This document shows positions 860 through 53,604 of a DNA stretch of 57,894 nucleotides, piece by piece. Positions within the stretch are counted from its first letter, which is position 1; every line of letters starts with the position of its first letter. Below the pieces are notes generated by a model that saw nothing but the letters and a program-made list of their open reading frames with translations, was not told the DNA's origin and made no database searches. The stretch covers positions 1 to 57,894 of the forward strand of contig VGKH01000003.1 in the NCBI GenBank assembly GCA_016867135.1, written 5' to 3'. Position numbers and translations under genes: made by a program. The stretch comes from Candidatus Omnitrophota bacterium (GTDB lineage: Bacteria; Omnitrophota; Gorgyraeia; VGKH01).

Positions 860-870
860 TTCGCCCTCCT

Positions 871-1012
871 TTAATGAGCGCTTGACTTATGGAGCGTTAG
901 CGACATAAGTCAATTGCGCGAATTTAACCCCCACACCAATTTTCCTTACCCCAACACCATAAAATTGGTGTGGGGGTAAGTTCGTCCGCCACAGTTTTAT
1001 TGGCGGACTCAC

Positions 1013-1015
<3 letters not shown>
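871..1015. repeat. Intercistronic quasi-palindromic element, copy 1 (H1 882-913, H2 928-976, H3 985-1007)
   Basis: Module order is TTAATGAGCGC, H1, TTGCGCGAATTTAA, a 16-bp perfect H2 stem (CCCCCACACCAATTTT/AAAATTGGTGTGGGGG), TAAGTTCG, H3, CTCACTTA. It runs from the ahcY stop codon to the SD of the next gene. Confidence 0.85.
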
Positions 1016-2287
<1,272 letters not shown>

Positions 2288-10138: not shown

Positions 10139-10363
10139 AAATGTCCGTCATTCGATTTAAGCGAATGACGAGATCTCGCCAATCCGCCAAAAACGGATTG
10201 GGGAAAAGCACATCCCGACGTATCGTCGGGATAAGTGCGAATTTGACCCCCACTGTTTCGTTTTGGTTCGCTTTACTTCACCAAAAGCGAAACAAAACGG
10301 TGGGGGTAAGCTCGACCTTGCAACTTATGTCGCCTACGGCTCCATAAGTTGCGGTCTCACTTA
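10139..10363. repeat. Intercistronic quasi-palindromic element, copy 2 (expanded, extra hairpin modules)
   Basis: Module order is AAATG.., three small hairpins, AAGTGCGAATTTGAC, a long H2 (CCCCCACTGTTTCG../..CAAAACGGTGGGGG), TAAGCTCG, H3 (GCAACTTATGTCGC..GCTCCATAAGTTGC), CTCACTTA. The pyrH TAA stop lies inside the terminal motif. Confidence 0.85.
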
Positions 10364-11077
10364 TCTTACCACAGTCCCTATTTTTTCACCCAATATAACC
10401 CTTTTTATATTTCCGGGTTTGGTAAAATTAAAAATTACGATTGGTAAATTATTATCCATGCAAAGGCTGATCGCAGTAGCATCCATAACCTTCAGTCTTT
10501 TTTGGAGCACATCCAGATATTCTAGCTTGGTAAATCTCTTGGCGTTCTTAACCTTGACTGGATCGGCGGAATAAACTCCGTCTACTTTGGTAGCTTTTAA
10601 AATTATATCGGCGTTGATTTCTTTTGCGCGCAAAGCCGCTGTGGTATCGGTAGTAAAATAAGGGTTACCCGTTCCGGCCACAAAAATAATCACTCTTCCC
10701 TTTTCCAGGTGCCGTATGGCCCTGCGACGGATATATGGTTCGGCGATCGCATGCATCTCTATAGCCGTCAAGACTCGCGTAGGCACGCCTATCTTTTCCA
10801 GCGCATCCTGAAGCGCTAAACCATTTATGACTGTAGCCAACATGCCCATATAATCCGCTACGGAACGGTCAATACCAAAAGCTGTGGATTTGGATTCGCC
10901 GCGAAATATATTTCCTCCGCCGACAACCAAGACAACCTGGACATTCAGGGATCTTACTTCTTTAATTTCTTTAGCAAGAGAATGGCAGAATTTTAAATCG
11001 ATCCCGTGCTTTTGAGCGCCCTGGAGGGCCTCACCGCTTAATTTCAAGACGACTCTTTTATATACCGGTCGGCTCAC
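10361..11077 (-). CDS. pyrH: UMP kinase
   Basis: Contains [18 protein letters not shown] and [15 protein letters not shown], conserved blocks. Confidence 0.95.
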
Positions 11078-12817: not shown

Positions 12818-12978
12818 TTTAATGAGCGCACAACTTATGGAGCACAAAGTGCGACATAAGTTGTTTTTTGCGCGAATTAACCCAGCTCTTTCTTTATAGT
12901 TACTATATCCTCCAAAGAAAGGGCTGGATAAAATTCCCCCCGCTTCTTGCTTTCGCAAGAAAGCAGCGGGGGTCATTT
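12818..12978. repeat. Intercistronic quasi-palindromic element, copy 3
   Basis: Module order is TTTAATGAGCGC, H1 (ACAACTTATGGAGC..GCGACATAAGTTGT), TTTTTGCGCGAATTAAC, H2 (CCAGCTCTTTCTTT/AAAGAAAGGGCTGG), ATAAAATT, a GC hairpin, TCATTT. It abuts the msbA-like TGA stop. Confidence 0.8.
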
Positions 12979-14771
12979 CACATATGGAATTGGGTATCGT
13001 AAAGCCGCTTGTATAAACCGCCCTTGGAAAGCAATTCTTCATGCGTGCCGACTTCAACAATCCTGCCCTGCTCTACCACCACGATTCTATTGGCTTTTCT
13101 TACCGTTGATAACCTGTGTGCAATACAGAAAACCGTACGGTTGGTGATTAACTTATTAATCGCCTCCTGGACCAGGCGTTCAGACTCGGAATCAAGCTGC
13201 GAAGTCGCCTCATCCAAGATAAGGATCGGCGGGTTCTTCAAGATTGCCCGGGCGATGGAAAGCCTCTGCTTCTCGCCGCCCGATAACTTAAAACCCCTAT
13301 CTCCGACTATAGTGTTATAACCCTCGGGCATTTTCATTACAAAATCATGCGCAAAAGCCTGCCTGGCGGCATTTTCAATCTGAGACTGAGGAGCTCCCGG
13401 TTTTCCATAAGCGATGTTAGCGGAAACGGTATCGTTAAATAATATCGTCTCTTGCGTTACCAATCCAACCTGCTCCCGTAAAGATTTAATCGTTGCGTCT
13501 CTTATATCAATACCATCTATAGAGACTTTACCTTTTTGAGGATCGTAAAACCGGGGTATCATATTTATTATGGATGTTTTCCCTGCGCCCGTCGGACCAA
13601 CGATAGCAATCATCTCGCCGTATTTTACCTCAAGATTGATATCCTTTAGGACATCTTGAGTATCCGATTCATATCTGAACCAAACGTTTTCAAAACGAAT
13701 ACTGGATTTTAAATTTGGCAGCGTTATAGCTCCTTCTTTATCTTCCAAGGCAGGCTTCAAATCCAGGATTTCTTCTATTCTCGCATTGGCAGCCAATGCC
13801 CGCTGGTTTAATGCATGGACCTGGCTCAATTTTTTAAAAGGCCTGATTAAAGATAACAATGAACCGAGGAACAAACCAAAGACGCCAAAGGAAAGCTTGC
13901 CGGCAATAACATCCTTGCCGCCGAGAAAGAAAACAAAGATTCCGCAAAAGGCCCCCACAAACTCCGTGATAGGATTAAGCAGCAGATTACGCTTTATAGC
14001 TTTCATCTCAAGCTTGTAGTTATCTTGGTTTTGATTGGAAAATTTATTAATTTCATAATTTTCCATGTTGAAAGCCTTGACGATTCTCACGCCCGATATA
14101 GTTTCGGAAAGCAAAGAATTGATATCTGCCATGCGCTCCTGTTGTCTCTTGGTAAGCTTGCGCAGTTTTCTGCCGATATTCACCGTCGGACCGACGACCA
14201 AAGGAAACAATATCAGCGCAAACAAAGCCATCTTCCAATGAATAATAAAAATAAGGGAAGTAAAAAGTATCAACTGAAAAGTCTGGTAGATAAGATCAGT
14301 GAACCCGTAGGAAACTGCGTTCTCAAGCGTTTTTACGTCGTTGGTTATGCGGGAGATTAATTCTCCTACGCGTTTCTGGCTGTAGAAATCTAAAGATAAT
14401 TCCTGCATTTTCTTATATAGAAGCAGGCGCGCATCTCTTATGACTCTTTGGCCTATGTCTGACATAAGATAACCCTGGAAGAAAGCAAAAATGCCCTTTA
14501 ACACAAATAAGGCCAAAACCACCCAAACCATTATGGTCAAAAGCGCAAGCGACGGCATACTATTTATTTTGTTGATGAAATCCATGACAAAACCGGGGAG
14601 TTTCGTGGCAACCACTATCTGTTTATCGGTCAATACCTTGTCTGCCAAAGGCACAATCATAGACAAGGATACCCCATCAAAAATAGCAGAGAAAAACATG
14701 CAAATTCCCGCCCAAACCAATACAGTTTTGTGCGGTTTTAAATATTTTATAAGTCTAAGGTAGTCTTTCAT
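12978..14771 (-). CDS. msbA: ABC transporter permease/ATPase, MsbA-like lipid exporter
   Basis: Six TM helices then an NBD with GPTGAGKT (Walker A), LSGGEKQR (signature) and ILILDEATS (Walker B). I placed the start at M36 (MKDYLRL.., 14771). The upstream ORF extension runs into repeat copy 4. Confidence 0.85.
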   Translation of the reverse strand: MKDYLRLIKYLKPHKTVLVWAGICMFFSAIFDGVSLSMIVPLADKVLTDKQIVVATKLPGFVMDFINKINSMPSLALLTIMVWVVLALFVLKGIFAFFQGYLMSDIGQRVIRDARLLLYKKMQELSLDFYSQKRVGELISRITNDVKTLENAVSYGFTDLIYQTFQLILFTSLIFIIHWKMALFALILFPLVVGPTVNIGRKLRKLTKRQQERMADINSLLSETISGVRIVKAFNMENYEINKFSNQNQDNYKLEMKAIKRNLLLNPITEFVGAFCGIFVFFLGGKDVIAGKLSFGVFGLFLGSLLSLIRPFKKLSQVHALNQRALAANARIEEILDLKPALEDKEGAITLPNLKSSIRFENVWFRYESDTQDVLKDINLEVKYGEMIAIVGPTGAGKTSIINMIPRFYDPQKGKVSIDGIDIRDATIKSLREQVGLVTQETILFNDTVSANIAYGKPGAPQSQIENAARQAFAHDFVMKMPEGYNTIVGDRGFKLSGGEKQRLSIARAILKNPPILILDEATSQLDSESERLVQEAINKLITNRTVFCIAHRLSTVRKANRIVVVEQGRIVEVGTHEELLSKGGLYKRLYDTQFHM

Positions 14772-14796: not shown

Positions 14797-14825
14797 TTGA
14801 CATTTGTCGAGGTATTTGTTAAAAT
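14797..14825 (+). promoter_or_regulatory. Candidate sigma70-like promoter reading into repeat copy 4 and the oxidoreductase-lpxB operon
   Basis: The + strand reads TTGACA, 17 nt, TAAAAT. Confidence 0.4.
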
Positions 14826-15011
14826 GAGCGCATCATTTACGGAGCATAAAATGCGACGTAAATGATAAGCGCTCATTTAACCCCGCCCTTTTGGCGGGGA
14901 GTAAAAAGAAATAAACTTCGCCAAAAGGGCGGGATAAGTTCGGACGAATAACTTATGTTCGTCTGAACTCCCTGCCTGACGTCAGGCAGGCATAAGTTAT
15001 GTCCTCACTTA
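14819..15011. repeat. Intercistronic quasi-palindromic element, copy 4 (at a divergent promoter region)
   Basis: Module order is AAAATGAGCGC, H1 (ATCATTTACGGAGC..GCGACGTAAATGAT), AAGCGCTCATTTAAC, H2 (CCCGCCCTTTTGGCG/CGCCAAAAGGGCGGG), ATAAGTTCG, nested H3, CTCACTTA. Confidence 0.8.
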
Positions 15012-15013
15012 CT

Positions 15014-18314: not shown

Positions 18315-18360
18315 ATTTGCCCTCGTTTTTATCCTTTATTCTATTCAATTATTTAGATAT

Positions 18361-18388
18361 ATTATATTGTTTTGGCGAGGATTGTAAA
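18361..18388 (-). promoter_or_regulatory. Candidate promoter (TTTACA, 16 nt, TATAAT) with A/T-rich upstream tract
   Basis: The minus strand reads CCTTTACAATCCTCGCCAAAACAATATAAT. The same template recurs at 35271-35298. Confidence 0.45.
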
Positions 18389-18405
18389 GGTAAAAAATAA
18401 ATATA

Positions 18406-18440
18406 AAAGGGCGGTCCGACGTAACGTCGGACCGCCCTTT
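18406..18440 (-). terminator. Intrinsic terminator
   Basis: 13-bp GC-rich stem GGGCGGTCCGACG/CGTCGGACCGCCC, followed on the minus strand by TTTTATATTT. Confidence 0.65.
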
Positions 18441-33155: not shown

Positions 33156-33779
33156 AATGACAGAGCTTTGGTTATCGAGATTCACACAGATTCTCTCATT
33201 GTTGCTTAGTAACGGTTTTAGGCTACGGTTACGATGCCCGTATCGTCTTAGGGTTACGTCTAGCGTCTTTTAAAATTATTCCAACTCTCGCCTAATTTAT
33301 ACAGTTGTCTGCCTGTTTTGTCGTATAAATCAATTAATTCGTCGCAGCGTTTTATATTTACAAAGCTCGGATAAATATCCCGTGCCTCGCTTAAACTAAC
33401 TACCATCTCATTAGACTCGCTCATAGCATCGTCAATGTATTTCTGAAAGCCTGATTTTTGATGGCGTTTAGCGTAACCTTCTGCTATCAATCTAGGTATT
33501 GCTTTACAGGCTCGACTTAGCTGATCTGTCAAATCATATTTTTCTCGCTCAGGTAATCTCGGGACAATTTCTTCCATAACAATAAGCATAGCTTTGTAGC
33601 CATTCAGATATACTTCTAAATCTTTAAAACTTGTTATCCTCTTTTTTTCTTCCATTACGTTACCGTTACCTTAACCGATACGGGCTTCGTTACCCTGACC
33701 TTAGCCGTATTCTTTCCAGCTGTCTTAAGATTGTGAGAGTCTGTGTGTATCTGAGTATAATGACAGAGCTTTTGGTTAT
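33156..33779 (-). mobile_element. Four-helix-bundle gene cassette with about 85-100-nt inverted arms and a 20-21-nt direct repeat
   Basis: The direct repeat is AATGACAGAGCTTTGGTTAT (33156-33175) versus AATGACAGAGCTTTTGGTTAT (33759-33779). The arms at 33176-33259 and 33656-33757 are mutually complementary (e.g. GCCCGTATCG/CGATACGGGC, CACACAGATTCTCTCA/TGAGAGTCTGTGTG). Confidence 0.5.
33260..33655 (-). CDS. Four-helix-bundle protein (23S rRNA intervening-sequence / Avd-like family)
   Basis: FKDLEVY.., ..YDLTDQLSRACKAIPRLIAEGY and ..F..YIDDAMSESNE are typical family blocks. Confidence 0.85.
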   Translation of the reverse strand: MEEKKRITSFKDLEVYLNGYKAMLIVMEEIVPRLPEREKYDLTDQLSRACKAIPRLIAEGYAKRHQKSGFQKYIDDAMSESNEMVVSLSEARDIYPSFVNIKRCDELIDLYDKTGRQLYKLGESWNNFKRR

Positions 33780-35214: not shown

Positions 35215-35270
35215 TTTATTAATTAAGGAGGCTGCCGTAATTATTCGTAACTATTATTAATTCTAAAATT

Positions 35271-35298
35271 ATTATACTGCTTTGCGACACATTGTAAA
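35271..35298 (-). promoter_or_regulatory. Candidate promoter (TTTACA, 16 nt, TATAAT)
   Basis: The minus strand reads CCTTTACAATGTGTCGCAAAGCAGTATAAT. The template is shared with 18361-18388. Confidence 0.45.
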
Positions 35299-35322
35299 GG
35301 CAAAAAAATAAATTAAAACTAA

Positions 35323-35403: not shown

Positions 35404-37242
35404 CTAAAAAGTCAGTTTTATCCCTCCCAACAAACCAAAGCCCGGGGTGGAAAAATCAAACTGCTCTTGGTATCTGCGGTTAAAAATATTGGTAACTCTC
35501 AGCAGGATATCCAGGTTTTGGGAGAAATGAAAAGTAGCATCTCCGTCCATCACAAAATACGGGGCAAGCGCGATGGTGTTATCGACATTGGCATAGCGCT
35601 TAGTTTTGTAGCGGCCGTATAAACCAAAATCCCATTTTTTATTCGGTGAGAATGCAAGCTTGCATTTATAAAGGCCTTTTGGCCGGTAAGTTAAGCGCAA
35701 ATCTGTATCTTCATTTCTTGCATCTAAAAATGTATAATTGAAATTCAGTTTTAGATTATCCTTTAGGACCCATTCGGCTTCCAGTTCAACTCCTTTAGTC
35801 AAGGCTTTGCCGACATTGTCCGGCCTCCACCAAAAAGAATTATCCATGGTCCATTCGATTAAATCATTGTATTTGGTGATAAAATAAGTCAAATCGGTCT
35901 TAACGGATTGAAAAACATATGTCCCCATGCCCAGTTCGTAAGATATGGCCTTCTCGGGAGTAAGTGTGGGATTGCCCTCCACCCCTCCCCAAATGCCCCA
36001 GTCTTCCCTGGGCCAATAAAGGTCATTAAATGTCGGGGTCCTGAATGACTGGGCAATCATCCCGTGAAACTTAAAGGTATCAAAAAGCCATGTGGCTGCG
36101 CTTACGCTCGGGCTAAACTCATCACCGAAAGTAGAATAATCATCCCAGCGGCCTCCGAACTTAATAATCAGATTATCATCGAGAAAAGCGGTTTCGCTTT
36201 CCAGATACAACGCCTTTAAGTTGTAATCATGCTTGGCGCTAGTTGAACTATTCAATTTATGTATCTGATAATTCGCACCGAATGTGGTGCGCCAGATATC
36301 AAACCATAGCTGGGAAAACTGGGCGTCGGCTCCATAGACTTTGGTGGCATGGTCGTCTTGGTCGCGCGGGTCAAAGGCCTCGATAAATTTCAGCTTATCG
36401 ACATTGTGGTATAACTTTAAGAGAATATCCTGGTCAGCCAGGAATTTGCCGTCCCATGTCAGGTCTATAAACCTTTTATCGCTCACGGTGCGGTCGTCCA
36501 AATCCGGATTAGAAACCCTGTCGGGACTACCCACGTTAGCCAAATGAAAACCGCTTGATAAAGAAATGTAATTATTATTATCGATTTGATAACCAACTTT
36601 GGCATTGGCATTATGGTCTCGATAATAGGCGTTATCCCGGTGCCCTTGAGAATTTAAATAATTGTATGATGCTAGGTAATCAAGATTTTTGATTTTATAG
36701 CTATTAACAAAAGACTCAGAATTCGTCCCAAAAGAGCCGCCTTTTGAGGTTAGCTCGGTTTTCATTTTGTCTTGTCCTTTTTTGGTAATGATATTGATAA
36801 CTCCTCCCACGGCATTAGCTCCGTACATGTTTGCAGCCGGGCCGCGCATAACTTCTATTCGCTCAATATTGGAAAGCGATATCTGATTAAAATCGGTCAG
36901 GCCGTCGCGCGGGGTGTTTACGGGCCTGCCGTCAATAAGGGTAAGGACCTGATTATTAGATGCCCCCCTTGTGTGCACGGATTTGACCGACCCCAAAGAA
37001 CCCTGCTCCAGCATATCCACTGAAGGCAACATATCCAAAAGCTCGGAAACCTCAAGCGCGTTAGAAGACTCAATCTCATCAGAAGAAATAATGCTGATAT
37101 TGGCAGGGACATTGCGGTAGGTCTGCTCTATTTTGGAGGCGCTAACAACAATTTTATCTAAGTCTAATTCGTAAGCAGATGCTGAATCAAGCAGGACGAA
37201 ACAAAAAATTACAAAGACCAAGGCAAAAACTAATCTTTTCAT
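35404..37242 (-). CDS. btuB: TonB-dependent outer-membrane receptor, BtuB-like
   Basis: Signal peptide, TonB box-like DKIVVSAS, a plug domain, a beta-barrel and a terminal aromatic residue (..GGIKLTF). It is preceded by a cobalamin riboswitch. I placed the start at 37242 (AAGGAGG upstream). Confidence 0.85.
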   Translation of the reverse strand: MKRLVFALVFVIFCFVLLDSASAYELDLDKIVVSASKIEQTYRNVPANISIISSDEIESSNALEVSELLDMLPSVDMLEQGSLGSVKSVHTRGASNNQVLTLIDGRPVNTPRDGLTDFNQISLSNIERIEVMRGPAANMYGANAVGGVINIITKKGQDKMKTELTSKGGSFGTNSESFVNSYKIKNLDYLASYNYLNSQGHRDNAYYRDHNANAKVGYQIDNNNYISLSSGFHLANVGSPDRVSNPDLDDRTVSDKRFIDLTWDGKFLADQDILLKLYHNVDKLKFIEAFDPRDQDDHATKVYGADAQFSQLWFDIWRTTFGANYQIHKLNSSTSAKHDYNLKALYLESETAFLDDNLIIKFGGRWDDYSTFGDEFSPSVSAATWLFDTFKFHGMIAQSFRTPTFNDLYWPREDWGIWGGVEGNPTLTPEKAISYELGMGTYVFQSVKTDLTYFITKYNDLIEWTMDNSFWWRPDNVGKALTKGVELEAEWVLKDNLKLNFNYTFLDARNEDTDLRLTYRPKGLYKCKLAFSPNKKWDFGLYGRYKTKRYANVDNTIALAPYFVMDGDATFHFSQNLDILLRVTNIFNRRYQEQFDFSTPGFGLLGGIKLTF

Positions 37243-37263
37243 AATTATCCTCCTTAAAAACAA

Positions 37264-37292
37264 AGCCCCTCCGACGTTACGTCGGAGGGGCT
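37264..37292 (-). terminator. Riboswitch expression-platform terminator
   Basis: Stem AGCCCCTCCGACG/CGTCGGAGGGGCT, followed on the minus strand by TTGTTTTT just before the SD. Confidence 0.6.
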
Positions 37293-37371
37293 GCACCCTA
37301 ATTTTCTTAATCCCCTAATTTATGCGCTCTGATACTGTATCCTTACGCAGTATTCAAAACTCTAATATATA

Positions 37372-37560
37372 GGCAGGTCTTCTGGCTTCCTTTGCCCTTT
37401 TAACGCCTTCCCACCCCATTAAATCAGGGCAGTGGCATAATGTTAAAAGGGTTCCCTTTCTCAAAAAACAAAAAAGGGCGGGGTTACAGCGGCGGGACCG
37501 CGTCTGCTTTGCTACTTCGCTTCGCTCAGTATCCTTCGCAACATTCTGAGCAAAATCGAA
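37372..37560 (-). promoter_or_regulatory. Cobalamin (B12) riboswitch aptamer
   Basis: The minus strand contains GCCACTGCCC..GGGTGGGAAGG and the B12 box AGCCAGAAGACCTGCC, plus an upstream CCGCCGCTGTAACCCCG element. The order matches the btuB leader class. Confidence 0.75.
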
Positions 37561-37602
37561 GGACAGACTTCCCTGTTTGGCTTATCGCGCACCTATATAA
37601 GA

Positions 37603-38109
37603 CTAATTAGTTAAAAGAGCAGTTGCAAAACGAGTATTCTTTACCCTTCTTGCAATTAATTCGTATGCACCGAACATCACAGCCGAATAAACAACTGTGG
37701 ATAATAGCGTGGCTCTGAAAAACGGTATCCCCATAATAAAACAATCTGCCAGGCCTTTTGAAGTATACGGATACCAACCGGAAATCCAAACACCGAAATT
37801 AGTAACCACGAAGAATAAAACTGCGGAAACTAAAGAAGAACCGGCTATATTCAAAACAGATTTATTTTTCTTCTGGGTTATCCCAAGAATGGAAATCAAG
37901 ACTACGCTTCCCCAGGTAAAAAGCATGGTATTGTGCAGGCCTAAGAATATATCGCTTAAAACCATCAACAATAAAGGCACTAAAACCGCGTATTTTCTAC
38001 TCAGATAATAACCGCCGAATAACGCGATAGCGATGACCGGGTTGAAATTCGGCGCATGCGGTATGAATCTAGTTAATATTCCTAAAACTATCAATGCTAT
38101 AGCTAACAT
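37603..38109 (-). CDS. Polytopic membrane protein (DUF6580-like; possible vitamin/corrinoid uptake component)
   Basis: N-terminal R.IPHAPNFNPV.AIALFGG motif and 5-6 TM helices. It lies between cobO and the riboswitch-btuB unit. Confidence 0.5.
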   Translation of the reverse strand: MLAIALIVLGILTRFIPHAPNFNPVIAIALFGGYYLSRKYAVLVPLLLMVLSDIFLGLHNTMLFTWGSVVLISILGITQKKNKSVLNIAGSSLVSAVLFFVVTNFGVWISGWYPYTSKGLADCFIMGIPFFRATLLSTVVYSAVMFGAYELIARRVKNTRFATALLTN

Positions 38110-38121
38110 ATAAATCCTCCC

Positions 38122-38279
38122 TTAAATGAGCACATAACTTACGGAGCGATAGCGAACGTAAGTTATCAGTGCGAATTTACCCCCACACCAATTTTCTTGC
38201 CCCCCCCCGCACCATAGAATTGGTGTGGGGGTCAGTTCCGATAAACCCTTGACAAGCTTGTCAAGGGTATCGTCACTGA
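38122..38279. repeat. Intercistronic quasi-palindromic element, copy 5
   Basis: H1 is identical to copy 6 (ATAACTTACGGAGCGATAGCGAACGTAAGTTAT) and the H2 stem is identical to copy 1. H3 is the perfect palindrome CCCTTGACAAGCTTGTCAAGGG. Confidence 0.85.
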
Positions 38280-38308
38280 TTTTATTAGAATTGCAGCCTA
38301 TTGTCAAG

Positions 38309-41427: not shown

Positions 41428-42559
41428 TTTCTCCTAGGACCAACCTGGCGATATTCAATGAGGATTCGGAAAAACCGATTGACCTGGCGCAACGCCTCAT
41501 ATTTTCTAAAGCTTCTTTATTATTCAAAAGCTCATTGATTTTCTTATCGAGTTGCTCCACCGAATCTGCCTTAACAGCTACTTCCTGCCTTAAAAGATAC
41601 GCCGTATTATTCGCTTCCTGGCCGGGGATCGGGTTCATTATAATCATCGGCAAGCCCTTGGATAAAGCCTCTGCCGAGGTTATGCCTCCCGGCTTGGTTA
41701 TCAATAGAGTGGCTATAGACATCAGCTCGTCGATATTGTTGACATAGCCCAAGGCAACCAGTGTCTTTTCTTTAGGATTATGCCTTTCCAGCCAATTAAG
41801 AAGCCGTTTATTTGTCCCGGCCACAACTATAACTTGAAAATCTGTTTTAATTTTATTGAATGATTTGATGACTTTCTTAATCGGGCCTATGCCCTGGCCT
41901 CCGCCCATAATTAAAATAATCGGCTTAGACAAATTCAGGCCTAATCCAGATGCCACCTCTTCTTTATTAACAGGCTGGGAGAATTGCTGGTCGATAGGAA
42001 TTCCCAGTATCTTAATCCTATCCTCTATTATTCCTTCACGGATCAATCTCTGGCGCGAATCCTGGTTAGGAACTACAAAATAATCAATTTCATCATAGAG
42101 CCAATAGGCATGCGGGGCATAATCAGTCAGAACTCCCATTAAAGGGACATTGAGGCCAAAAGTTTTCTTAAAATCGGCGACCATGCCGCAGGGAAATGCC
42201 TGAGTGCAGATAATAAAATCCGGGGAGAACTCATCGAGCAAAAGCTGCAATTTCTTATGATTTGATCTGTGTATCGCTTCCTTTACATATCTTGTACTTT
42301 TTACAATCTTGGGATTATCATATAGATATTCCCACACTTCTGGCCTTCTTTTTATCACACTAAGATAGGCTCTGTTTATTATCTTTTCTAAAATGGGATT
42401 TGTATAGTTAAAACCGTTGATGTTCCTGGTGATAATCTCGGGTCTTAAAATCTTCAGCGCCTTTTCGATAGACAAAGTTGCGCTATGATGGCCAGAAACC
42501 TCTGAAATGTACATTAAAAGAACTCTTTTTGCAGACATATTATCTCTATTGTTCCTCAA
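41420..42559 (-). CDS. GT28-type glycolipid synthase (MGDG synthase / UgtP-like)
   Basis: N-terminal SGHHSA-type motif and a C-terminal KPGG.T..EAL block. Confidence 0.7.
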   Translation of the reverse strand: MRNNRDNMSAKRVLLMYISEVSGHHSATLSIEKALKILRPEIITRNINGFNYTNPILEKIINRAYLSVIKRRPEVWEYLYDNPKIVKSTRYVKEAIHRSNHKKLQLLLDEFSPDFIICTQAFPCGMVADFKKTFGLNVPLMGVLTDYAPHAYWLYDEIDYFVVPNQDSRQRLIREGIIEDRIKILGIPIDQQFSQPVNKEEVASGLGLNLSKPIILIMGGGQGIGPIKKVIKSFNKIKTDFQVIVVAGTNKRLLNWLERHNPKEKTLVALGYVNNIDELMSIATLLITKPGGITSAEALSKGLPMIIMNPIPGQEANNTAYLLRQEVAVKADSVEQLDKKINELLNNKEALENMRRCARSIGFSESSLNIARLVLGENV

Positions 42560-42782
42560 TCATCGCCAAGGTATCTCCAACGTGGACTTCATCGCCTTCT
42601 TCTTTTAATTTTTCTTTTAAAATCCCTGAAGCCGGAGAGGGCATATTAAATGTCGCCTTATCCGTTGCAAGCTCTACCAGGTCCTCTCCTTCTTTTACTT
42701 CGTCTCCTACTTCAAAATTCCAGTATGTGACTGACGCCTTGACAATTCCTTCTCCTAACTCCGGCAAGACAACCTTTGTCAT
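42546..42782 (-). CDS. Stand-alone lipoyl/biotinyl attachment domain protein
   Basis: 78 aa. LPELGEGI.. ..VELATDKATFNMPSPASG is a lipoyl-lysine motif. Confidence 0.75.
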   Translation of the reverse strand: MTKVVLPELGEGIVKASVTYWNFEVGDEVKEGEDLVELATDKATFNMPSPASGILKEKLKEEGDEVHVGDTLAMIEEQ

Positions 42783-42793
42783 TATAGACCTCC

Positions 42794-43015
42794 TTTAATG
42801 AGCACATAACTTACGGAGCGATAGCGAACGTAAGTTATAAGTGCGAAGTAAATCCAGCACTAATTTTACTACAAGACTCGAGAAAACAATAGCAGTTTTA
42901 TTCAAATAAATCCGTAGTATTCACAACCCAACGTTGTCAGTAAAATTAGTGCTGGGTCAAATTCAGACACTCAACTTAGCTTCACTATCGTTCGCTAAGT
43001 TGTGTATTCATTTGA
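42794..43015. repeat. Intercistronic quasi-palindromic element, copy 6
   Basis: 17-bp H2 stem CCAGCACTAATTTTACT/AGTAAAATTAGTGCTGG with a loop of about 72 nt. The right arm overlaps the last 10 codons and the stop of lipB. Confidence 0.85.
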
Positions 43016-43737
43016 CCTTCTACTATTTCTAAAGCAAAAACTTTCTTAAATTCTTCCACCAATCTTTCTTTTAATCGATTATCTATAACAATCTCTCTGC
43101 CCATAATCTGAGAAAGCGAAGTCATCCGAACGTCTAACCCGCATGGTTTGATCAAAGAAAAATATTCTAAATCGGTATTTAGGTTTATGGCTAAGCCGTG
43201 AAAAGTAATCCATTTCTTCACGGCGATACCGATAGAAGCGATTTTTCTATCTTCTATCCAGACACCAGTATATCCAGGTTTTCTTTCTGCTTCAAGATTA
43301 AAATTATTTAAGAAATTAATTATTACTTCTTCCAAAGACCAAAGAAAAAACTTTAGGTCTTTTTTGAGTTTATTTAAATCAAAAACCGGATAGGCGACTA
43401 ACTGTCCCGGGCCGTGATAGGTAATCCTTCCGCCTCTTTCGACCGAATAATTTGAAACGCCCAACTGCTTAAGCTTTAGCGGCGAGATAAGCAAATCGCT
43501 TTCCTTGGTCATTCTTCCTTGGGTAATTGTGTGCGGATGCTCGCAGAGAATTAAGGCGTGAGGCTCGTTCCCATATCTAATTTTGTCCAAAACTTGCTTT
43601 TGAAACTCGTAAGCATAAGAATAATCAACCAAGCCCAGATCGACTATCCGACATAAATTATTCTCCTTCGCCTTTCCACTTGTATCCAATGGTATAGGCT
43701 TCGGAGAATATTCTACGAAGCATTTACCATTATTCAT
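42985..43737 (-). CDS. lipB: Octanoyltransferase (lipoate-protein ligase B)
   Basis: Contains RGG..TYHGPGQLV and K..S.G motifs. I placed the start at ATG 43737 (ATGAATAA overlap with the lpdA stop). The ORF track begins at 43821. Confidence 0.85.
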   Translation of the reverse strand: MNNGKCFVEYSPKPIPLDTSGKAKENNLCRIVDLGLVDYSYAYEFQKQVLDKIRYGNEPHALILCEHPHTITQGRMTKESDLLISPLKLKQLGVSNYSVERGGRITYHGPGQLVAYPVFDLNKLKKDLKFFLWSLEEVIINFLNNFNLEAERKPGYTGVWIEDRKIASIGIAVKKWITFHGLAINLNTDLEYFSLIKPCGLDVRMTSLSQIMGREIVIDNRLKERLVEEFKKVFALEIVEGQMNTQLSER

Positions 43738-45052
43738 ATTCCTTGTGCGAAGTAGAATAGATACTTTTTGTCGCCTCTCTAATAGCTTCGGATAAGGTAG
43801 GGTGTGCAAAGATTGTGTCATTAATTTGAGAAATTTTTAACTTTGATTTTATGGCTAAAGAAAAAACTGCGATAAGCTCTGTTGCCTTCGGACCGACTAT
43901 CGCCGCTCCCAGAATTTCTTTAGAATTACCGTCAAATAGGACCTTTATAAATCCGTCTGTTTCATCCAAAATATGCGCCATTCCTGAAGCCAAGAAATCA
44001 AACTTACCAATCTGGTATTGGATACCTTTGGCGCCTGCCGCCTCTTCCGTCAATCCTACGCTTGAAATCTCCGGATCGGTAAAAATACAATTTGGGACTG
44101 CGGAATAATCTACCGGGATTTTCTTTCCGGAGATATTCTCGACCGCTAATTCTCCCTCGTAAGCTGCGACATGTGCCAACTGATGGCCGCCGATACAATC
44201 GCCTACCGCATAGAGATTGTCAATGTTAGTCTGCATGAATTCATTTACCAGAATTCCCTTTTTATCTGTCTTTACTCCGATCTTTTCCAATCCTTCAATT
44301 TCCTTGTTGGCAACTCTTCCCACGCAAACCAAGACCTTTTCAAACTTATCCAGAGCGACTGTCTTGACATCGGTCTTGGTTAAAATCTTTACACTCTTTC
44401 TCTTTAATGCCACTTCCAATTTCTTTGCAATATCCTTATCTTCGTTAGGTAAAATATGTTCCAGTATCTCAACTATTGTTACCTTGGCGCTAAGAGAAGC
44501 AAAAATATTGGCGAATTCGCAACCGATGACACCGCCTCCGACTATGAGAAGGCTTTCAGGAATAAATTTTAGATCTAAAATATCATCGCTAGAAATAATA
44601 TTCTTTTGATTGAATTTCAAAAACGGCAGCTCAATTGGCCTTGAACCGATAGCGATAATAACATTCTTTGCTTTTATGCTTCGCGAATCGACCAGAATCT
44701 CATCGGCATTAACGAATTTAGCCTCGCCCTTAATCAATTCAACGCCTTTGGTGGATAACTGGAATTCCATGCCTTTGGCCATCTTATCGACTATCGCCGA
44801 TTTGCGCTGCTGGATTTTATCGAAATTTACTTCGGCGCCTTTTACTTCTACCCCAAAAACAGAATTATCTTTGATATGCGAAAAAATGCGGGAAGATTGT
44901 ACTAATACCTTGGTGGGTATACATCCTTGATTAAGGCAAGTGCCGCCTATTTTTTTCTGTTCCACCAAACAGACAGAAAGCCCAAGCTGCTTAGCCTTGA
45001 TTGCCGCGCTGAAACCTGCCCATCCAGCTCCGATTATACAGATATCGTGCAT
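43730..45052 (-). CDS. lpdA: Dihydrolipoyl dehydrogenase
   Basis: Contains GAGWAG, the redox-active GGTCLNQGCIPTK, and a C-terminal HPTLSE. Confidence 0.92.
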   Translation of the reverse strand: MHDICIIGAGWAGFSAAIKAKQLGLSVCLVEQKKIGGTCLNQGCIPTKVLVQSSRIFSHIKDNSVFGVEVKGAEVNFDKIQQRKSAIVDKMAKGMEFQLSTKGVELIKGEAKFVNADEILVDSRSIKAKNVIIAIGSRPIELPFLKFNQKNIISSDDILDLKFIPESLLIVGGGVIGCEFANIFASLSAKVTIVEILEHILPNEDKDIAKKLEVALKRKSVKILTKTDVKTVALDKFEKVLVCVGRVANKEIEGLEKIGVKTDKKGILVNEFMQTNIDNLYAVGDCIGGHQLAHVAAYEGELAVENISGKKIPVDYSAVPNCIFTDPEISSVGLTEEAAGAKGIQYQIGKFDFLASGMAHILDETDGFIKVLFDGNSKEILGAAIVGPKATELIAVFSLAIKSKLKISQINDTIFAHPTLSEAIREATKSIYSTSHKEYE

Positions 45053-48567: not shown

Positions 48568-48750
48568 TTTAATGAGCACATAACTTACGAACATGAAATG
48601 TGAGTAAGTTATAAGTGCGAATTAAATCCTTGACAATTTTTGAAATAACAGTCGCTTTCGCAAATAACCCTTGACCAAAAATTGTCAAGGATCAAATTCA
48701 GCCATCAAACTTACGTTCACTAACGTTCCGTAAGTTTGGGCTTCATTTGA
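48568..48750. repeat. Intercistronic quasi-palindromic element, copy 7
   Basis: Module order is TTTAATGAGCAC, H1, AAGTGCGAATTAAAT, H2 (CCTTGACAATTTTT/AAAAATTGTCAAGG), TCAAATTCAG, H3 (CAAACTTACG..CGTAAGTTTG). The right arm overlaps the 3' end of the leuC-like gene. Confidence 0.85.
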
Positions 48751-52724: not shown

Positions 52725-52736
52725 TCTTTTCCTCCT

Positions 52737-52980
52737 CAAATGAGCAGACAATTTACGGGATGAAATGACGTAAATTGTAGTCCGCCATTGTTTCATTGGC
52801 GGGCGTCTGCGAATTTGACCCCCCACCACTTTTAGTAATGGGGCGTCTTTTTACATAAAATGTTTATCTTTCTTCCAATCCCACATCTTTAATTCCACCG
52901 CTGTTTCTAAAAGTGGTGGGGGGTAAGTTCGGACAAATAACTTATGTCGCTTTCGCTTCCATAAGTTATGTCCTCACTTA
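52737..52980. repeat. Intercistronic quasi-palindromic element, copy 8 (between rpsD and rpoA)
   Basis: Module order is CAAATGAGCAG, H1, an extra TCCGCCA..TGGCGG hairpin, CTGCGAATTTGAC, H2 (CCCCCCACCACTTTT/AAAAGTGGTGGGGGG, loop about 78 nt), TAAGTTCG, H3, CTCACTTA. The terminal motif contains the rpsD TAA stop. Confidence 0.85.
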
Positions 52981-53604
52981 TTTAGAATATAACTCTACGA
53001 TCAATTGCTCTTTAATTGGCAATTTGATATCTTCTCTTTCAGGCAATCTCAATACTTTTGCTTTAAGGTTACTCGCATCTAATTCCAGCCAAGCAGGCAT
53101 TCCGCGTTCCTTGGAGACTTCCAGGTTATTCTCCAATTTCTTGCGTAATTTCTCCTTGGCTTTGACTTCTATGACATCGTCTTTCTTTACCAAAAAAGAA
53201 GAAATGTTAACTTTATGATTATTTACGTATACATGATTATGTCCGACAATCTGCCTTGCTTCCGAACGCGAAGTAGCTAAATGAAGGTGAAAAACTACGT
53301 TGTCTAAGCGGCGCTCCAAATATTGCAGCAATGTTTCGCCGGTAACGCCCTTAGTCTCAGCTGCCTTTTCGAAATAATTACGAAATTGCTTCTCTAAAAC
53401 ACCGTATATCCTTTTTACTTTTTGTTTTTCCCTTAGCTGCTGTGCATAGTTTGATAGTTTCACCCTTGCCTGTCCATGCTGGCCAGGAGCGTATTGCCTT
53501 CTTGCAAAGGCACACTTCTCAGTAGTGCACCTTGTGCCTTTTAAGAATAATTTCATTGCTTCCCTACGACAAAGCCTACAACTTGGTCCTGTATATCTTG
53601 CCAT
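52978..53604 (-). CDS. rpsD: 30S ribosomal protein S4
   Basis: [16 protein letters not shown]-like N-terminus and an S4 domain. I placed the start at 53604. Confidence 0.93.

Follow-up and report, generated by a model that had tools for sequence, protein, structure and literature searches.

Eight palindromic elements at gene boundaries in an Omnitrophota contig

The window, by which the whole 57.9-kb stretch of DNA analysed here is meant, comes from a Lake Tanganyika Candidatus Omnitrophota metagenome-assembled genome (MAG) and contains eight copies of a long palindromic element. All eight were found within 3 nt of the coordinates given to them by a first-pass annotation, and the layout which that annotation had described was borne out as well: each copy is composed of a left hairpin domain, a long central hairpin of the form CCC…GGG (H2) and, on the right, a hairpin domain that mirrors the left one in inverted form, with H2 stems that vary in sequence from copy to copy and are self-complementary in each. 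The flanking domain is referred to below as the X module, with X_A at the left end and X_B at the right. A ninth copy from the same strain lies just beyond the window, at the rpsS/rplV junction (L002:650-880). Strands are given in brackets for the end modules; whole elements and H2 carry no strand assignment (SD, Shine-Dalgarno sequence).

Copy 1, 870..1016: X_A 870-927 (+), H2 928-975 (arms CCCCCACACCAATTTT), right module 976-1016 (-); between the stop of an AdoHcy hydrolase gene and the SD of a DUF4140/4139 gene
Copy 2, 10139..10364: left half 10139-10246, H2 10247-10305, X_B 10306-10364 (-); between the pyrH stop and the frr SD
Copy 3, 12818..12980: X_A 12818-12881 (+), H2 12882-12928, non-canonical right module 12929-12980 (-); after the stop of an ABC-transporter gene, upstream of the rpsB region
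Copy 4, 14820..15012: X_A 14820-14880 (+), H2 14881-14933, X_B 14934-15012 (-); between divergent genes, whose start codons adjoin both ends
Copy 5, 38122..38280: X_A 38122-38180 (+), H2 38181-38230, right module 38231-38280 (-); between cobO and a DUF6580 gene
Copy 6, 42794..43015: X_A 42794-42852 (+), H2 42853-42956, X_B 42957-43015 (-); between lplA and a lipoyl-domain gene
Copy 7, 48568..48750: X_A 48568-48626 (+), H2 48627-48691 (arms CCTTGACAATTTTT), X_B 48692-48750 (-); between an aconitase-family gene and a T2SSE ATPase gene
Copy 8, left module, 52736..52817 (+): X_A type, assigned from the fold; adjoins the rpoA SD
Copy 8, central hairpin, 52818..52922: H2 with 18-bp arms CCCCCCACCACTTTTAG / CTAAAAGTGGTGGGGGG and a ~70-nt loop without an ORF
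Copy 8, right module, 52923..52981 (-): X_B type, covariance-model match of 65.8 bits

Six copies had been said to fit exactly between the stop codon of one gene and the GGAGG of the next. On the SD side this holds for copies 1, 2, 5, 6, 7 and 8, and the stop side proved variable. The first three bases of the element are the stop codon TAA in copies 1, 2 and 8, the upstream ORF overlaps copies 6 and 7 by ~30 nt each, and in copy 5 the stop and the element lie 29 nt apart. The spacer between them contains a promoter-like site (38307-38279), which is just upstream of copy 5 and outside the element. Copy 3 is placed at a gene end before a non-coding stretch.

The end modules also vary. The left half of copy 2 is atypical and consists of three small hairpins, X_A of copy 4 has perfect pairing in place of the G·A loop described below, X_B of the same copy holds an extra nested hairpin, and the right module of copy 5 has the inner hairpin ACCCTTGACAAGCTTGTCAAGGGT. 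Shuffling of small hairpins between copies, another claim of the first-pass annotation, is evident from a TCCGCCA…TGGCGGA hairpin that is present both on the right in copy 1, as a non-canonical inner hairpin within the conserved outer stem and G·A frame, and as a left insert in copy 8. There, X_A (covariance-model match 52736-52791, 32 bits, + strand) has a tandem G·A internal loop inside the outer stem CAAAT/ATTTG, followed by the canonical hairpin AATTTACGG…CGTAAATT and then by the nested extra hairpin (TCCGCCA…TGGCGG, ~52780-52803). X_B of copy 8 reads TAAGTGAGGAC-ATAACTTATGG…CATAAGTTAT-TTGTCC-GAACTTA on the coding strand, and opens with TAA, which serves as the stop codon of rpsD (52978-52980). 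As a whole, copy 8 folds far better than shuffled sequence (z = -8.3 as RNA, z = -9.1 as DNA), with none of 200 shuffles as good.

A covarying hairpin module frames the elements

A covariance model was built from the flanking module and run over the 57.9-kb window, where matches were obtained only inside the eight elements, with E-values of 1e-18 to 1e-11. The model is strand-specific, scoring 60-75 bits on one strand and 15-32 bits on the other, and all eight copies therefore share one orientation, in agreement with the earlier annotation. X is found on opposite strands at the two ends of five of the eight window copies at strong scores (E <= 1e-10), and weaker right- or left-end matches occur in copies 1, 2, 3 and 5. 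Elements in other loci are bounded by 37 inverted X pairs. The ends are thus inverted, each running from outside to inside on its own strand.

The module is ~58 nt long, starts with (T/A)AA(A/G)TGAG and contains two conserved tandem G·A mismatches and almost no G·U pairs. Stem covariation, which had been claimed for the elements, is supported by frequent compensatory changes: among X modules that had not been picked via a 23-nt core of X, 16 of 20 base pairs were altered on both sides. Paired cells amounted to 95.8%, as compared to 76% in shuffles and 22-36% in slid controls, and no shuffle out of 500 matched the observed value on any measure. Watson-Crick pairs make up ~97% of the stems. Wobble-pair asymmetry, examined as a guide to a functional RNA strand, was not found, as the few G·U pairs show no preference for either strand, sense or antisense.

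Exact matches to the 23-nt core were found in more than 116 stretches from ~57 assemblies, nearly all labelled Omnitrophota. Sequence conservation of X is very high throughout the phylum, which is unusual for a purely selfish repeat. The view that the elements belong to no Rfam family was confirmed, as none of the elements, whether from the window or from five related loci, gave a match at the gathering threshold, and permissive searches returned only chance-level matches. Likeness to K-turns, C/D boxes and attC sites was rejected because there is no 3-nt bulge beside the G·A pairs and there are no consistent RYYYAAC/GTTRRRY cores.

The central hairpin shares its arms with GIY-YIG nuclease cassettes

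In full-length copies elsewhere, the arms of H2 are the inverted repeats that bracket an ORF for a stand-alone GIY-YIG nuclease of ~80 aa. Read in the sense of the host genes, such an element consists of the host stop codon, X_B, an arm ACCC…TTTT, the nuclease ORF, an arm AAAA…GGGT and X_A, with the SD or ATG of the following host gene beyond it. In elements that lack the ORF, the arms pair with each other to form H2, as they do in all eight window copies. Nineteen ORF-bearing elements were identified, four in genome loci (one of them truncated) and 15 in metagenome loci, the latter from a protein-based scan; in these 15, X has the orientation expected and is 12-25 nt away from the ORF ends. 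Full elements at L100:1645-2024, L100:6128-6510 and L028:651-1035 each hold a Pfam PF01541 ORF within H2, and a truncated GIY-YIG cassette lies inside the L115 element; E-values for the cassette ORFs range from 1.6e-10 to 6.5e-19. A full ORF-bearing element in another locus (L134) occupies the rpsD/rpoA junction, the same junction as copy 8.

The nuclease is 76-91 aa long and comprises the catalytic domain only, with no DNA-binding domain; the nearest solved structure by sequence is 1zg2, an uncharacterised stand-alone UPF0213 protein. The internal ORF, always in the same orientation, has the sense of the host genes. It lacks an SD or promoter-like motif of its own, its ATG directly follows the 5' arm, and its stop codon is in or beside the 3' arm. 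Inverted arms bracket at least 57 of 79 GIY-YIG ORFs of this family, and framing by X was seen for 13 of the 18 closest relatives as compared to two of 62 more distant ones.

Five of the nine copies in the strain (copies 1, 4, 6, 8 and 9) share their H2 arms with ORF-bearing cassettes, and in copies 4, 6, 8 and 9 the arms are identical to cassette arms over 13-21 nt. The arms of copy 4 (CCCCGCCCTTTTGGCG) are those of the truncated L115 cassette, and the arms of copy 6 (CCAGCACTAATTTTACT) are those of ORF-bearing cassettes in four loci (L028, L100, L129 and L131). Copy 8 matches the arms around a 91-aa GIY-YIG ORF in L193 (21 nt at 95%, 14-15 nt at 100%), and copy 1 matches those of L132 (88% over 26 nt). 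The differences in H2 between copies are differences between cassette lineages, as opposed to drift within one RNA family. Because none of the eight window copies contains an ORF, their link to the cassette rests on these shared arms and on the architecture seen elsewhere. Remnants of the nuclease ORF were sought in the H2 loops of the window and rejected, as the arms alone match and loop matches are at chance level.

The same cassette also occurs without X, inside a 16S rRNA gene (L143), next to tRNAs (L086, L082 and L022) and between other hairpins (L127, L133, L137 and L139), so X and the cassette may be two independent layers. Among the copies, the same arms are combined with differing X variants and identical X_A with differing arms (copies 5/6, 1/5 and 4/9), and half elements made of one X plus H2 occur in both orientations. 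None of 37 pairs was a bare X_B|X_A junction lacking H2, as the empty target is supposed to be, and H2 follows every X observed. The ORFs found between widely spaced X pairs were discarded as ordinary host genes (ribH, an SRPBCC-like gene and pyrR, in L113, L100 and L094).

Elements end where host genes stop and start

Next to the outer ends of X, a start on the opposite strand was found 92 times and a stop on the same strand 40 times, counts that are biased by the choice of genome loci via X itself and an X_A-type motif. The stop codon falls within the first 8 nt of X in 30 of the 40 stop-adjoining cases, and downstream of X either an SD begins after 0-2 nt or an ATG follows after 1-6 nt. Elements were also found between divergent genes and after tRNAs or terminators. 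A role of X as an SD substitute was considered, as 40 of the 83 genes next to X have no SD and a start codon 1-6 nt from the module, and was dropped because about half of the non-adjacent genes also lack an SD-like motif.

In a relative that is 93% identical (L001), the element is absent at all three comparable junctions, rpsD/rpoA, aconitase/T2SSE and rpsS/rplV, which hold copies 8, 7 and 9. Comparison of the empty and filled junctions showed that the stop codon and SD are retained and that the short spacer is replaced. These empty sites could also be losses rather than the ancestral state. No direct repeat indicative of a target-site duplication was present at 37 full elements or in the three empty/filled comparisons, and models of TA and TAA duplication were rejected on the same material; the three bases after CTCATT belong to the element, since they pair with the inner strand and covary. 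Outside the 37 full elements there is no conserved target tetranucleotide. A second series of empty sites, sought via the lipoyl-protein gene, yielded only contigs of the same strain and one assembly chimera, joined at the X_A sequence that copies 5 and 6 have in common.

The statement that the elements are not simple terminators stood up: no terminator-like site, in which a U-tract would follow a G+C-rich hairpin, lies within copies 5-8. Counts of promoters and terminators in the elements equal background, and the elements sit inside operons with essential downstream genes. Searches for a Y1/HUH transposase with jackhmmer, seeded with IS200 and IS608 TnpA, returned none in six-frame translations of 1.19 Mb, a sample that could miss one copy per genome. 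The partners that have the same ends encode a GIY-YIG nuclease, not a known transposase.

Resemblance to known repeats and mobile genes

REP sequences are imperfect palindromes of ~20-40 nt with a conserved 5' GTAG-type tetranucleotide. Like the REP, BIME and REPIN repeats of proteobacteria, which go with RAYT transposases, the elements described here are abundant intergenic palindromes in transcribed DNA, located after stops or between cistrons; they form inverted pairs of two slightly different repeat types with a linker, and their hairpins are maintained without target duplication. They differ in the length of X (~58 nt), in its two tandem G·A loops, in lacking a GTAG-type 5' tetranucleotide and in a linker that is a long hairpin able to hold a GIY-YIG ORF. 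In addition, X is conserved over a whole phylum instead of being species-specific, and no RAYT was found in the 1.19-Mb sample, which is a weak test. Effects on mRNA stability are established for REPs (Nunvar et al. 2010, PMC2817692; Bertels & Rainey 2011, PMC3116915).

Free-standing GIY-YIG homing genes (phage T4 Seg, I-TevI-type, rRNA-gene insertions) have the same catalytic domain and likewise lie between conserved genes in the same transcriptional sense, vary in presence among close relatives and leave no target duplication; the related cassettes in a 16S rRNA gene and at tRNA genes extend this likeness. In contrast to such genes, the protein here is only 76-91 aa long and lacks a DNA-binding domain, multiple copies of the element in one genome occupy many non-homologous junctions, and conserved hairpins and inverted arms frame an element of which most copies are without an ORF.

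MITEs of the Correia/NEMIS, ERIC, RUP and BOX types are flanked by duplications of TA or another target, and those of known origin are derivatives of DDE insertion sequences. As is the case for MITEs with structured inverted repeats (Correia/NEMIS, ERIC/IRU, RUP and BOX), the present elements are small, ORF-less and multicopy, have inverted ends and reside in intergenic, co-transcribed DNA, and they share modularity with BOX. They are set apart by the lack of duplication, by ends that are covarying hairpins and by an autonomous relative that encodes a nuclease. In IS200/IS605 elements, both end hairpins are on one strand and not inverted, and insertion takes place 3' of a fixed tetra- or pentanucleotide. 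The PATEs of this family also have hairpin ends, leave no target duplication and include small non-autonomous derivatives; the ends here are inverted, with no fixed flanking target and no TnpA found. MITEs with structured inverted repeats fold into long RNA hairpins and can affect the expression of neighbouring genes (PMC10969869).

Origin and spread of the elements

The eight elements are probably ORF-less, MITE-like derivatives of a composite selfish GIY-YIG element that is widespread in Omnitrophota and has probably spread by homing or gene conversion, a reading to which we assign a probability of roughly 60%. The nuclease ORF would be expressed by read-through from the host operon, and the cassette would spread in the manner of homing-endonuclease genes, with the nuclease cutting unoccupied, hairpin-flanked junctions and recombinational repair then copying the cassette in with variable flank lengths. 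Copying of this type would account for junctions that show no target duplication and have their spacers replaced, and for the mosaic way in which X and H2 variants are combined. Between cistrons the element would be tolerated because the upstream gene is given, or keeps, a stop codon at one outer end (TAA or TGA within the first 8 nt) and because the other end lies exactly where the initiation region downstream starts. By analogy with REP and ERIC, the stable hairpins may alter mRNA stability or processing. An 80-aa GIY-YIG domain without a DNA-binding domain speaks against homing, for which cleavage and copying are steps that we infer, and we know of no GIY-YIG protein that mobilises a multicopy element.

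An arrangement in two layers, in which the inverted X pairs are a REP/BIME- or REPIN-like repeat with a trans-acting enzyme (RAYT-like or other) encoded elsewhere and the GIY-YIG cassette is a separate parasite that homes into their palindromic centre and leaves H2 as its footprint, appears unlikely to us. Cassettes and arms at the 16S rRNA gene, tRNAs and other hairpins away from X, the independent combination of arms with X variants, half elements in both orientations and a BIME-like layout of inverted, slightly different repeats and linker in transcribed intergenic DNA would all be accommodated, as would the conservation of X, which is far stronger than that of the arms. However, H2 accompanies every X observed and no bare X pair was found, the framing of 13 of the 18 closest GIY-YIG relatives points to a tight rather than occasional association, and X has neither the 20-40 nt length nor the 5' tetranucleotide of REPs; the lack of Y1/HUH in 1.19 Mb adds weak evidence against such an enzyme. 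The first-pass annotation had instead offered a MITE- or PATE-like element moved by an HUH/Y1 transposase. The MITE-like mobile part of that proposal stands, given multiple copies, inverted ends, absence at three L001 junctions and ORF-carrying versions with the same ends, and the proposed mover does not. A classical MITE or PATE moved by a DDE or HUH/Y1 enzyme, with the GIY-YIG ORF as a passenger, would suit small, numerous elements with inverted ends whose presence varies between relatives, and single-strand transposition of the HUH type would fit the missing duplication. It is nevertheless very improbable: no transposase ORF was found inside any element or elsewhere in the sampled DNA (weak evidence as regards Y1), the end hairpins are on opposite strands, unlike those of IS200/IS605, no target tetranucleotide is conserved outside the element, the copies are mosaics of modules rather than copies of whole elements, and the nuclease is the sole internal ORF, found 19 times in one orientation.

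The same annotation had also raised a selected RNA structure that punctuates operons. Were the hairpins maintained by the host to insulate, stabilise or process cistrons and to set downstream translation, with mobility incidental, one would understand the strict placement and orientation of full elements at gene boundaries, their very stable folds, their frequent compensatory changes, their conservation across the phylum and their presence in essential operons (rpsD/rpoA, pyrH/frr and rpsS/rplV). As the primary explanation this is improbable, since three of the same junctions are empty in the 93%-identical relative and the two DNA strands are symmetric: inverted ends carry the same module on both strands, so that one end module is always transcribed as the complement, with U·C in place of G·A. 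The reading is weakened further by the near absence of G·U without sense/antisense bias, by SD usage beside the element at background level, by elements between divergent genes and after tRNAs or terminators, and by the existence of ORF-bearing versions.

Within the preferred reading of a composite GIY-YIG element, a more specific proposal can be put forward tentatively: the ~80-aa nuclease might recognise folded DNA as opposed to a sequence-specific duplex, either the X hairpins with their G·A mismatches or a cruciform of the whole palindrome, and might copy itself and its ORF-less derivatives into stop/start operon junctions throughout the phylum, as an undescribed class of mobile element. 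If this were true, such structure-guided, nuclease-driven intragenomic spread would be distinct from DDE, HUH, serine and tyrosine transposition and also from classical single-site homing.

A search of the literature on Omnitrophota/Omnitrophica, GIY-YIG, MITEs, palindromic repeats and UPF0213 found no description of such elements. Stand-alone GIY-YIG proteins of the UPF0213 type are common in bacterial genomes and, to our knowledge, have no established role; tying one clade of them to a defined multicopy DNA architecture provides a testable hypothesis of function. Omnitrophota are uncultured organisms with small, gene-dense genomes, and the element persists in these compact genomes by fitting the gaps between stop and initiation, even in ribosomal-protein and RNA-polymerase operons. 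The X module could be used as a marker for the phylum. The repeats also interrupt metagenome assembly, give rise to chimeric joins in these MAGs and lead to miscalled start and stop codons, as in the ORFs that run into copies 4, 6 and 7.

Architecture of the eight intergenic elements

The eight element copies proposed in the first-pass annotation were all located in the window, with the module order it had described:

871-1015: copy 1
10139-10363: copy 2, between pyrH and frr
12818-12978: copy 3
14819-15011: copy 4, with divergent genes on either side
38122-38279: copy 5
42794-43015: copy 6
48568-48750: copy 7
52737-52980: copy 8, between rpsD and rpoA

Folding of each copy on the gene-sense (minus) strand gives three hairpins abutting one another. 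In the 5' domain, X_B, a 5-bp stem on the outside is followed inwards by a GA/GA internal loop (2×2), then a short stem, and then a hairpin of AACTTAYGG-loop-CCRTAAGTT type; the central H2 is a long hairpin that starts with CCC and finishes with GGG; and the 3' domain, X_A', is the inverted counterpart of X_B. The RNA fold of copy 8 reached -90.6 kcal/mol as compared to -52.9 ± 4.6 for shuffles (z = -8.3), and as single-stranded DNA it folded equally well relative to shuffles (z = -9.1). A covariance model was built from an alignment of X, the ~58-nt flanking module of which X_A and X_B are the two types. Its matches in the window were confined to the eight elements and strongly strand-specific, indicating that the single orientation previously claimed for all copies is real. 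An Rfam search of the elements gave no match, and no terminator-like site was found within copies 5-8, in line with the earlier remarks that the consensus was not recognised as an Rfam family and that the elements are not simple terminators.

The copies are mosaics of modules. Copies 5 and 6 have an identical X_A and different H2, copies 1 and 5 have H2 arms in common and different X, and small hairpins reappear at differing positions among copies. Short-read assemblies covering the surroundings of the lipoyl-protein gene (window 42546-42782; L207-L213) break exactly within X_A; in L213 the left-hand part of copy 5 continues, through the identical 59-nt X_A, into the sequence that flanks copy 6 on the right, a join that looks like a repeat-caused assembly chimera.

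Empty sites and phylum-wide occurrence

Exact S11 protein matches led to contigs from Lake Tanganyika metagenomes. One of them, 99.96% identical to the window (L002), reaches past the window's end and has a further, ninth copy at the rpsS/rplV junction. In a ~93% identical relative (L001, an ENA contig from a Lake Tanganyika metagenome), the element is missing from all three comparable junctions (rpsD/rpoA, aconitase/T2SSE, and rpsS/rplV), with both the stop codon and the SD-ATG region kept; the 4-17 nt spacer of L001 is absent beside the element in the window strain. This comparison of orthologous junctions, as proposed in the first-pass annotation, revealed no direct repeat flanking the insert at any of the three, and hence no target duplication. 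Because L001 is empty at all three, these junctions can do without the element, whose gain or loss takes place over short evolutionary distances. Another insertion relative to L001, of 97 nt (43661-43757, between an lpdA-like ORF and lplA), is not an X/H2 element; it adds 9 codons to the upstream ORF and supplies its own AAGGAG SD.

The 23-nt X core AATGAGCRCAYAACTTAYGGAGC was searched exactly in a 596-Gb genome collection, where less than one match is expected by chance, and more than 116 matching stretches were found. The 80 matches listed derive from ~57 assemblies, nearly all labelled Candidatus Omnitrophota/Omnitrophica, with sources spanning groundwater, lakes, the Black Sea, deep mines, and sediments. 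Among them are one complete chromosome of 1.82 Mb and VGKK01, a Tanganyika MAG; the labels of a few others read Planctomycetes, Neomarinimicrobiota, or just "bacterium" (as deposited). The element family is therefore phylum-wide.

A GIY-YIG nuclease cassette in the central hairpin

In otherwise typical full elements of other Omnitrophota, an ORF of ~80 aa fills the H2 "loop":

L100:1645-2024, full element with ORF
L100:6128-6510, full element with ORF
L028:651-1035, full element with ORF
L115, element with a truncated ORF (47 aa)

These ORFs hit PF01541, the catalytic domain of GIY-YIG nucleases, with E-values as low as 6.5e-19, and the nearest solved relative is an uncharacterised, stand-alone UPF0213 protein. 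The 5' arm of the cassette (e.g. CCCAGCACTAATTTT) stops 0-6 nt ahead of the ATG, with no SD, and the ORF stop codon lies within or beside the 3' arm. No GIY-YIG ORF is present anywhere in the window, so all eight copies are ORF-less derivatives. Their arms recur in ORF-bearing cassettes, those of copy 6 in L028, L100, L129, and L131, of copy 8 in L193, and of copy 1 in L132, while copy 4 and the ninth copy share arms with the truncated-ORF cassette of L115. Judged from these sequences, H2 corresponds to the paired arms of a nuclease cassette.

Scanning metagenome contigs at the protein level yielded 80 more GIY-YIG loci. X modules oriented as expected, 12-25 nt away from the ends of the ORF, are present in 13 of the 18 closest relatives (≥51% identity) but in only 2 of the 62 more distant ones. 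In the X-framed cases whose flanks were read (three genome and seven metagenome loci), the ORF is preceded by an X_B-type module and followed by an X_A-type one, and it runs in host-gene sense wherever host genes can be seen. One full ORF-bearing element (L134) sits exactly at the rpsD/rpoA junction. Another element variant occupies the same junction in L122 (1150-1500), from another Omnitrophota genome, where a ~50-nt unit, CCCGAACTTATCGGAAAGCTCGGTATGCCGCTTTCTGCGGCAACA, is repeated in tandem about four times in the X_A hairpin loop. Of 79 ORFs of this GIY-YIG family, at least 57 have inverted arms of the style ACCC…TTTT / AAAA…GGGT on either side. They include cassettes lodged in a 16S rRNA gene, towards its 3' end (L143:1400-1860), and beside tRNA genes with duplicated tRNA 5' segments (L086:5780-6400, L082:6900-7450, and L022:1650-2250), which is classical homing-endonuclease behaviour.

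A second class of central hairpin occurs next to X_A (L029, L123, L102, L014, L124, L018, L019, L011, L110, and L113), often in half elements that follow tRNA genes. It reads CCC-N5-6-TACG-[stem]-loop-[stem]-GAAGTGnTT-N5-6-GGG, has a conserved asymmetric purine-rich internal loop, and may be a distinct structured motif.

Structural constraint on the X module

Covariation was assessed in 53 X modules not chosen via the 23-mer (bystander copies and copies found through the nuclease). Paired cells amounted to 95.8%, as compared to 76% in shuffles and 22-36% when the partner column was slid; changes on both sides were seen in 16 of 20 pairs, and none of 500 shuffles attained the observed value by any measure. 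Both GA/GA internal loops are nearly invariant. X is thus under structural selection. Its pairing is almost wholly Watson-Crick (966 cells versus 10 G·T and 6 A·C), and G·U use in H2 does not differ between sense and antisense (84 versus 73). Functional RNAs usually tolerate G·U solely on the transcribed strand. The scarcity of G·U and its lack of strand bias, taken with the arrangement of X as inverted ends that read inwards on opposite strands, indicate that the constraint acts on DNA, through a hairpin/cruciform or symmetric recognition of both ends, rather than on one RNA strand.

Placement relative to genes

Ordinary core genes flank the window copies, further examples being AdoHcy hydrolase, cobO, lplA / lipoyl-domain protein, and aconitase-family / T2SSE ATPase. 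Six copies had been described as fitting exactly between a stop codon and the next GGAGG. The SD side of this description holds, as six copies end directly at a GGAGG-type SD; the stop side varies, in that the stop codon itself opens copies 1, 2, and 8, the upstream reading frame runs into copies 6 and 7, and the stop codon lies 29 nt from copy 5. Immediately upstream of copy 5 is a near-consensus promoter-like site (TTGACA-17-TAAAAT; 38279-38307, minus strand), and copy 5 may therefore sit in a 5' UTR and not within an operon transcript. Downstream of its flanking cobO / DUF6580 lies a cobalamin riboswitch (37355-37611, minus strand; 72.7 bits), upstream of a TonB-dependent receptor gene (35404-37296).

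In a census of 195 X modules, based on crude gene calls made in this analysis, the outer X end abuts an opposite-strand gene start in 92 and a same-strand gene stop in 40; in 30 of these 40 the stop codon falls within the first 8 nt of X, as the outer-stem TAA or the TGA of AATGAG. Close convergent pairs, that is full elements, account for 66 modules. Downstream of the element, an SD follows 0-2 nt away in 43 cases, and an ATG 1-6 nt away without an SD in 40. This split is not special, because ~50% of genes away from elements carry an SD-like motif by the same test. The element thus occupies the entire gap from stop codon to the following initiation region, of whatever kind. Half elements, consisting of one X with an H2, are found in either orientation, some of them immediately behind tRNA genes and terminator-like T-runs.

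Origin and mechanism of spread

We propose that the window copies are decayed, non-autonomous derivatives of the cassette. The cassette would be expressed via read-through, with the arm helix occluding the ORF start and holding expression low, and would spread via repair of nuclease-induced breaks, by homing or gene conversion in which flanks are variably co-converted, without transposase chemistry. The X hairpins would be the structure recognised. It is also conceivable that X is a REP/BIME-like repeat which the cassette parasitised as a second, independent layer. That the cassette also occurs without X fits such layering, but H2 is present with every X, and X is present at most close nuclease relatives, as expected of a single unit.

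The first-pass annotation had offered two explanations, a MITE- or PATE-like element moved by an HUH/Y1 transposase and a selected RNA structure that punctuates mRNAs. An HUH/Y1 mover is unsupported: the end hairpins lie on opposite strands and, as weaker evidence, TnpA is absent from the 1.19 Mb sampled. A purely RNA-functional origin is unlikely given the empty L001 junctions, the DNA-like pairing of X with no G·U strand bias, and the placement data, including SD use that matches background, although effects of the element on mRNA stability or processing are plausible.

In layout and location the element resembles BIME/REPIN and the structured MITEs (ERIC, Correia, BOX), but it lacks the features that define them, having no GTAG-type REP, no target duplication, and no known transposase partner. 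Free-standing GIY-YIG homing-endonuclease genes are alike in gene content and presence/absence behaviour, whereas here a DNA-binding domain is missing from the protein, and copies of the element occupy multiple non-homologous sites. We regard it as a palindromic repeat of intergenic DNA that is non-autonomous and whose autonomous relative, unusually, encodes a nuclease. No description of such an element was found in the searchable literature, and "GIY-YIG" is absent from the text of a 2024 review on prokaryotic MITEs; a categorically new mechanism, though less likely than not, is a real possibility.

Other features of the window and loci

A gene of the PF05635 23S-rRNA-intervening-sequence protein family lies outside any rRNA gene (33260-33655, minus strand; L205 gene table). 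A single 2745-aa ORF (24901-33138, minus strand) has ~520-nt-spaced internal repeats at 27604-27690 and 28123-28209. In L123, a group II intron (Rfam RF02001 and RF00029; 106-278 and 1784-1857) lies ~300 nt from a full X-H2-X element. A 49-nt AT-rich intergenic repeat (73% identity; TATTATAYTG…TTGTAAAGG…AAATAAAT) at 18360-18408 and 35270-35318 may represent a shared regulatory region.
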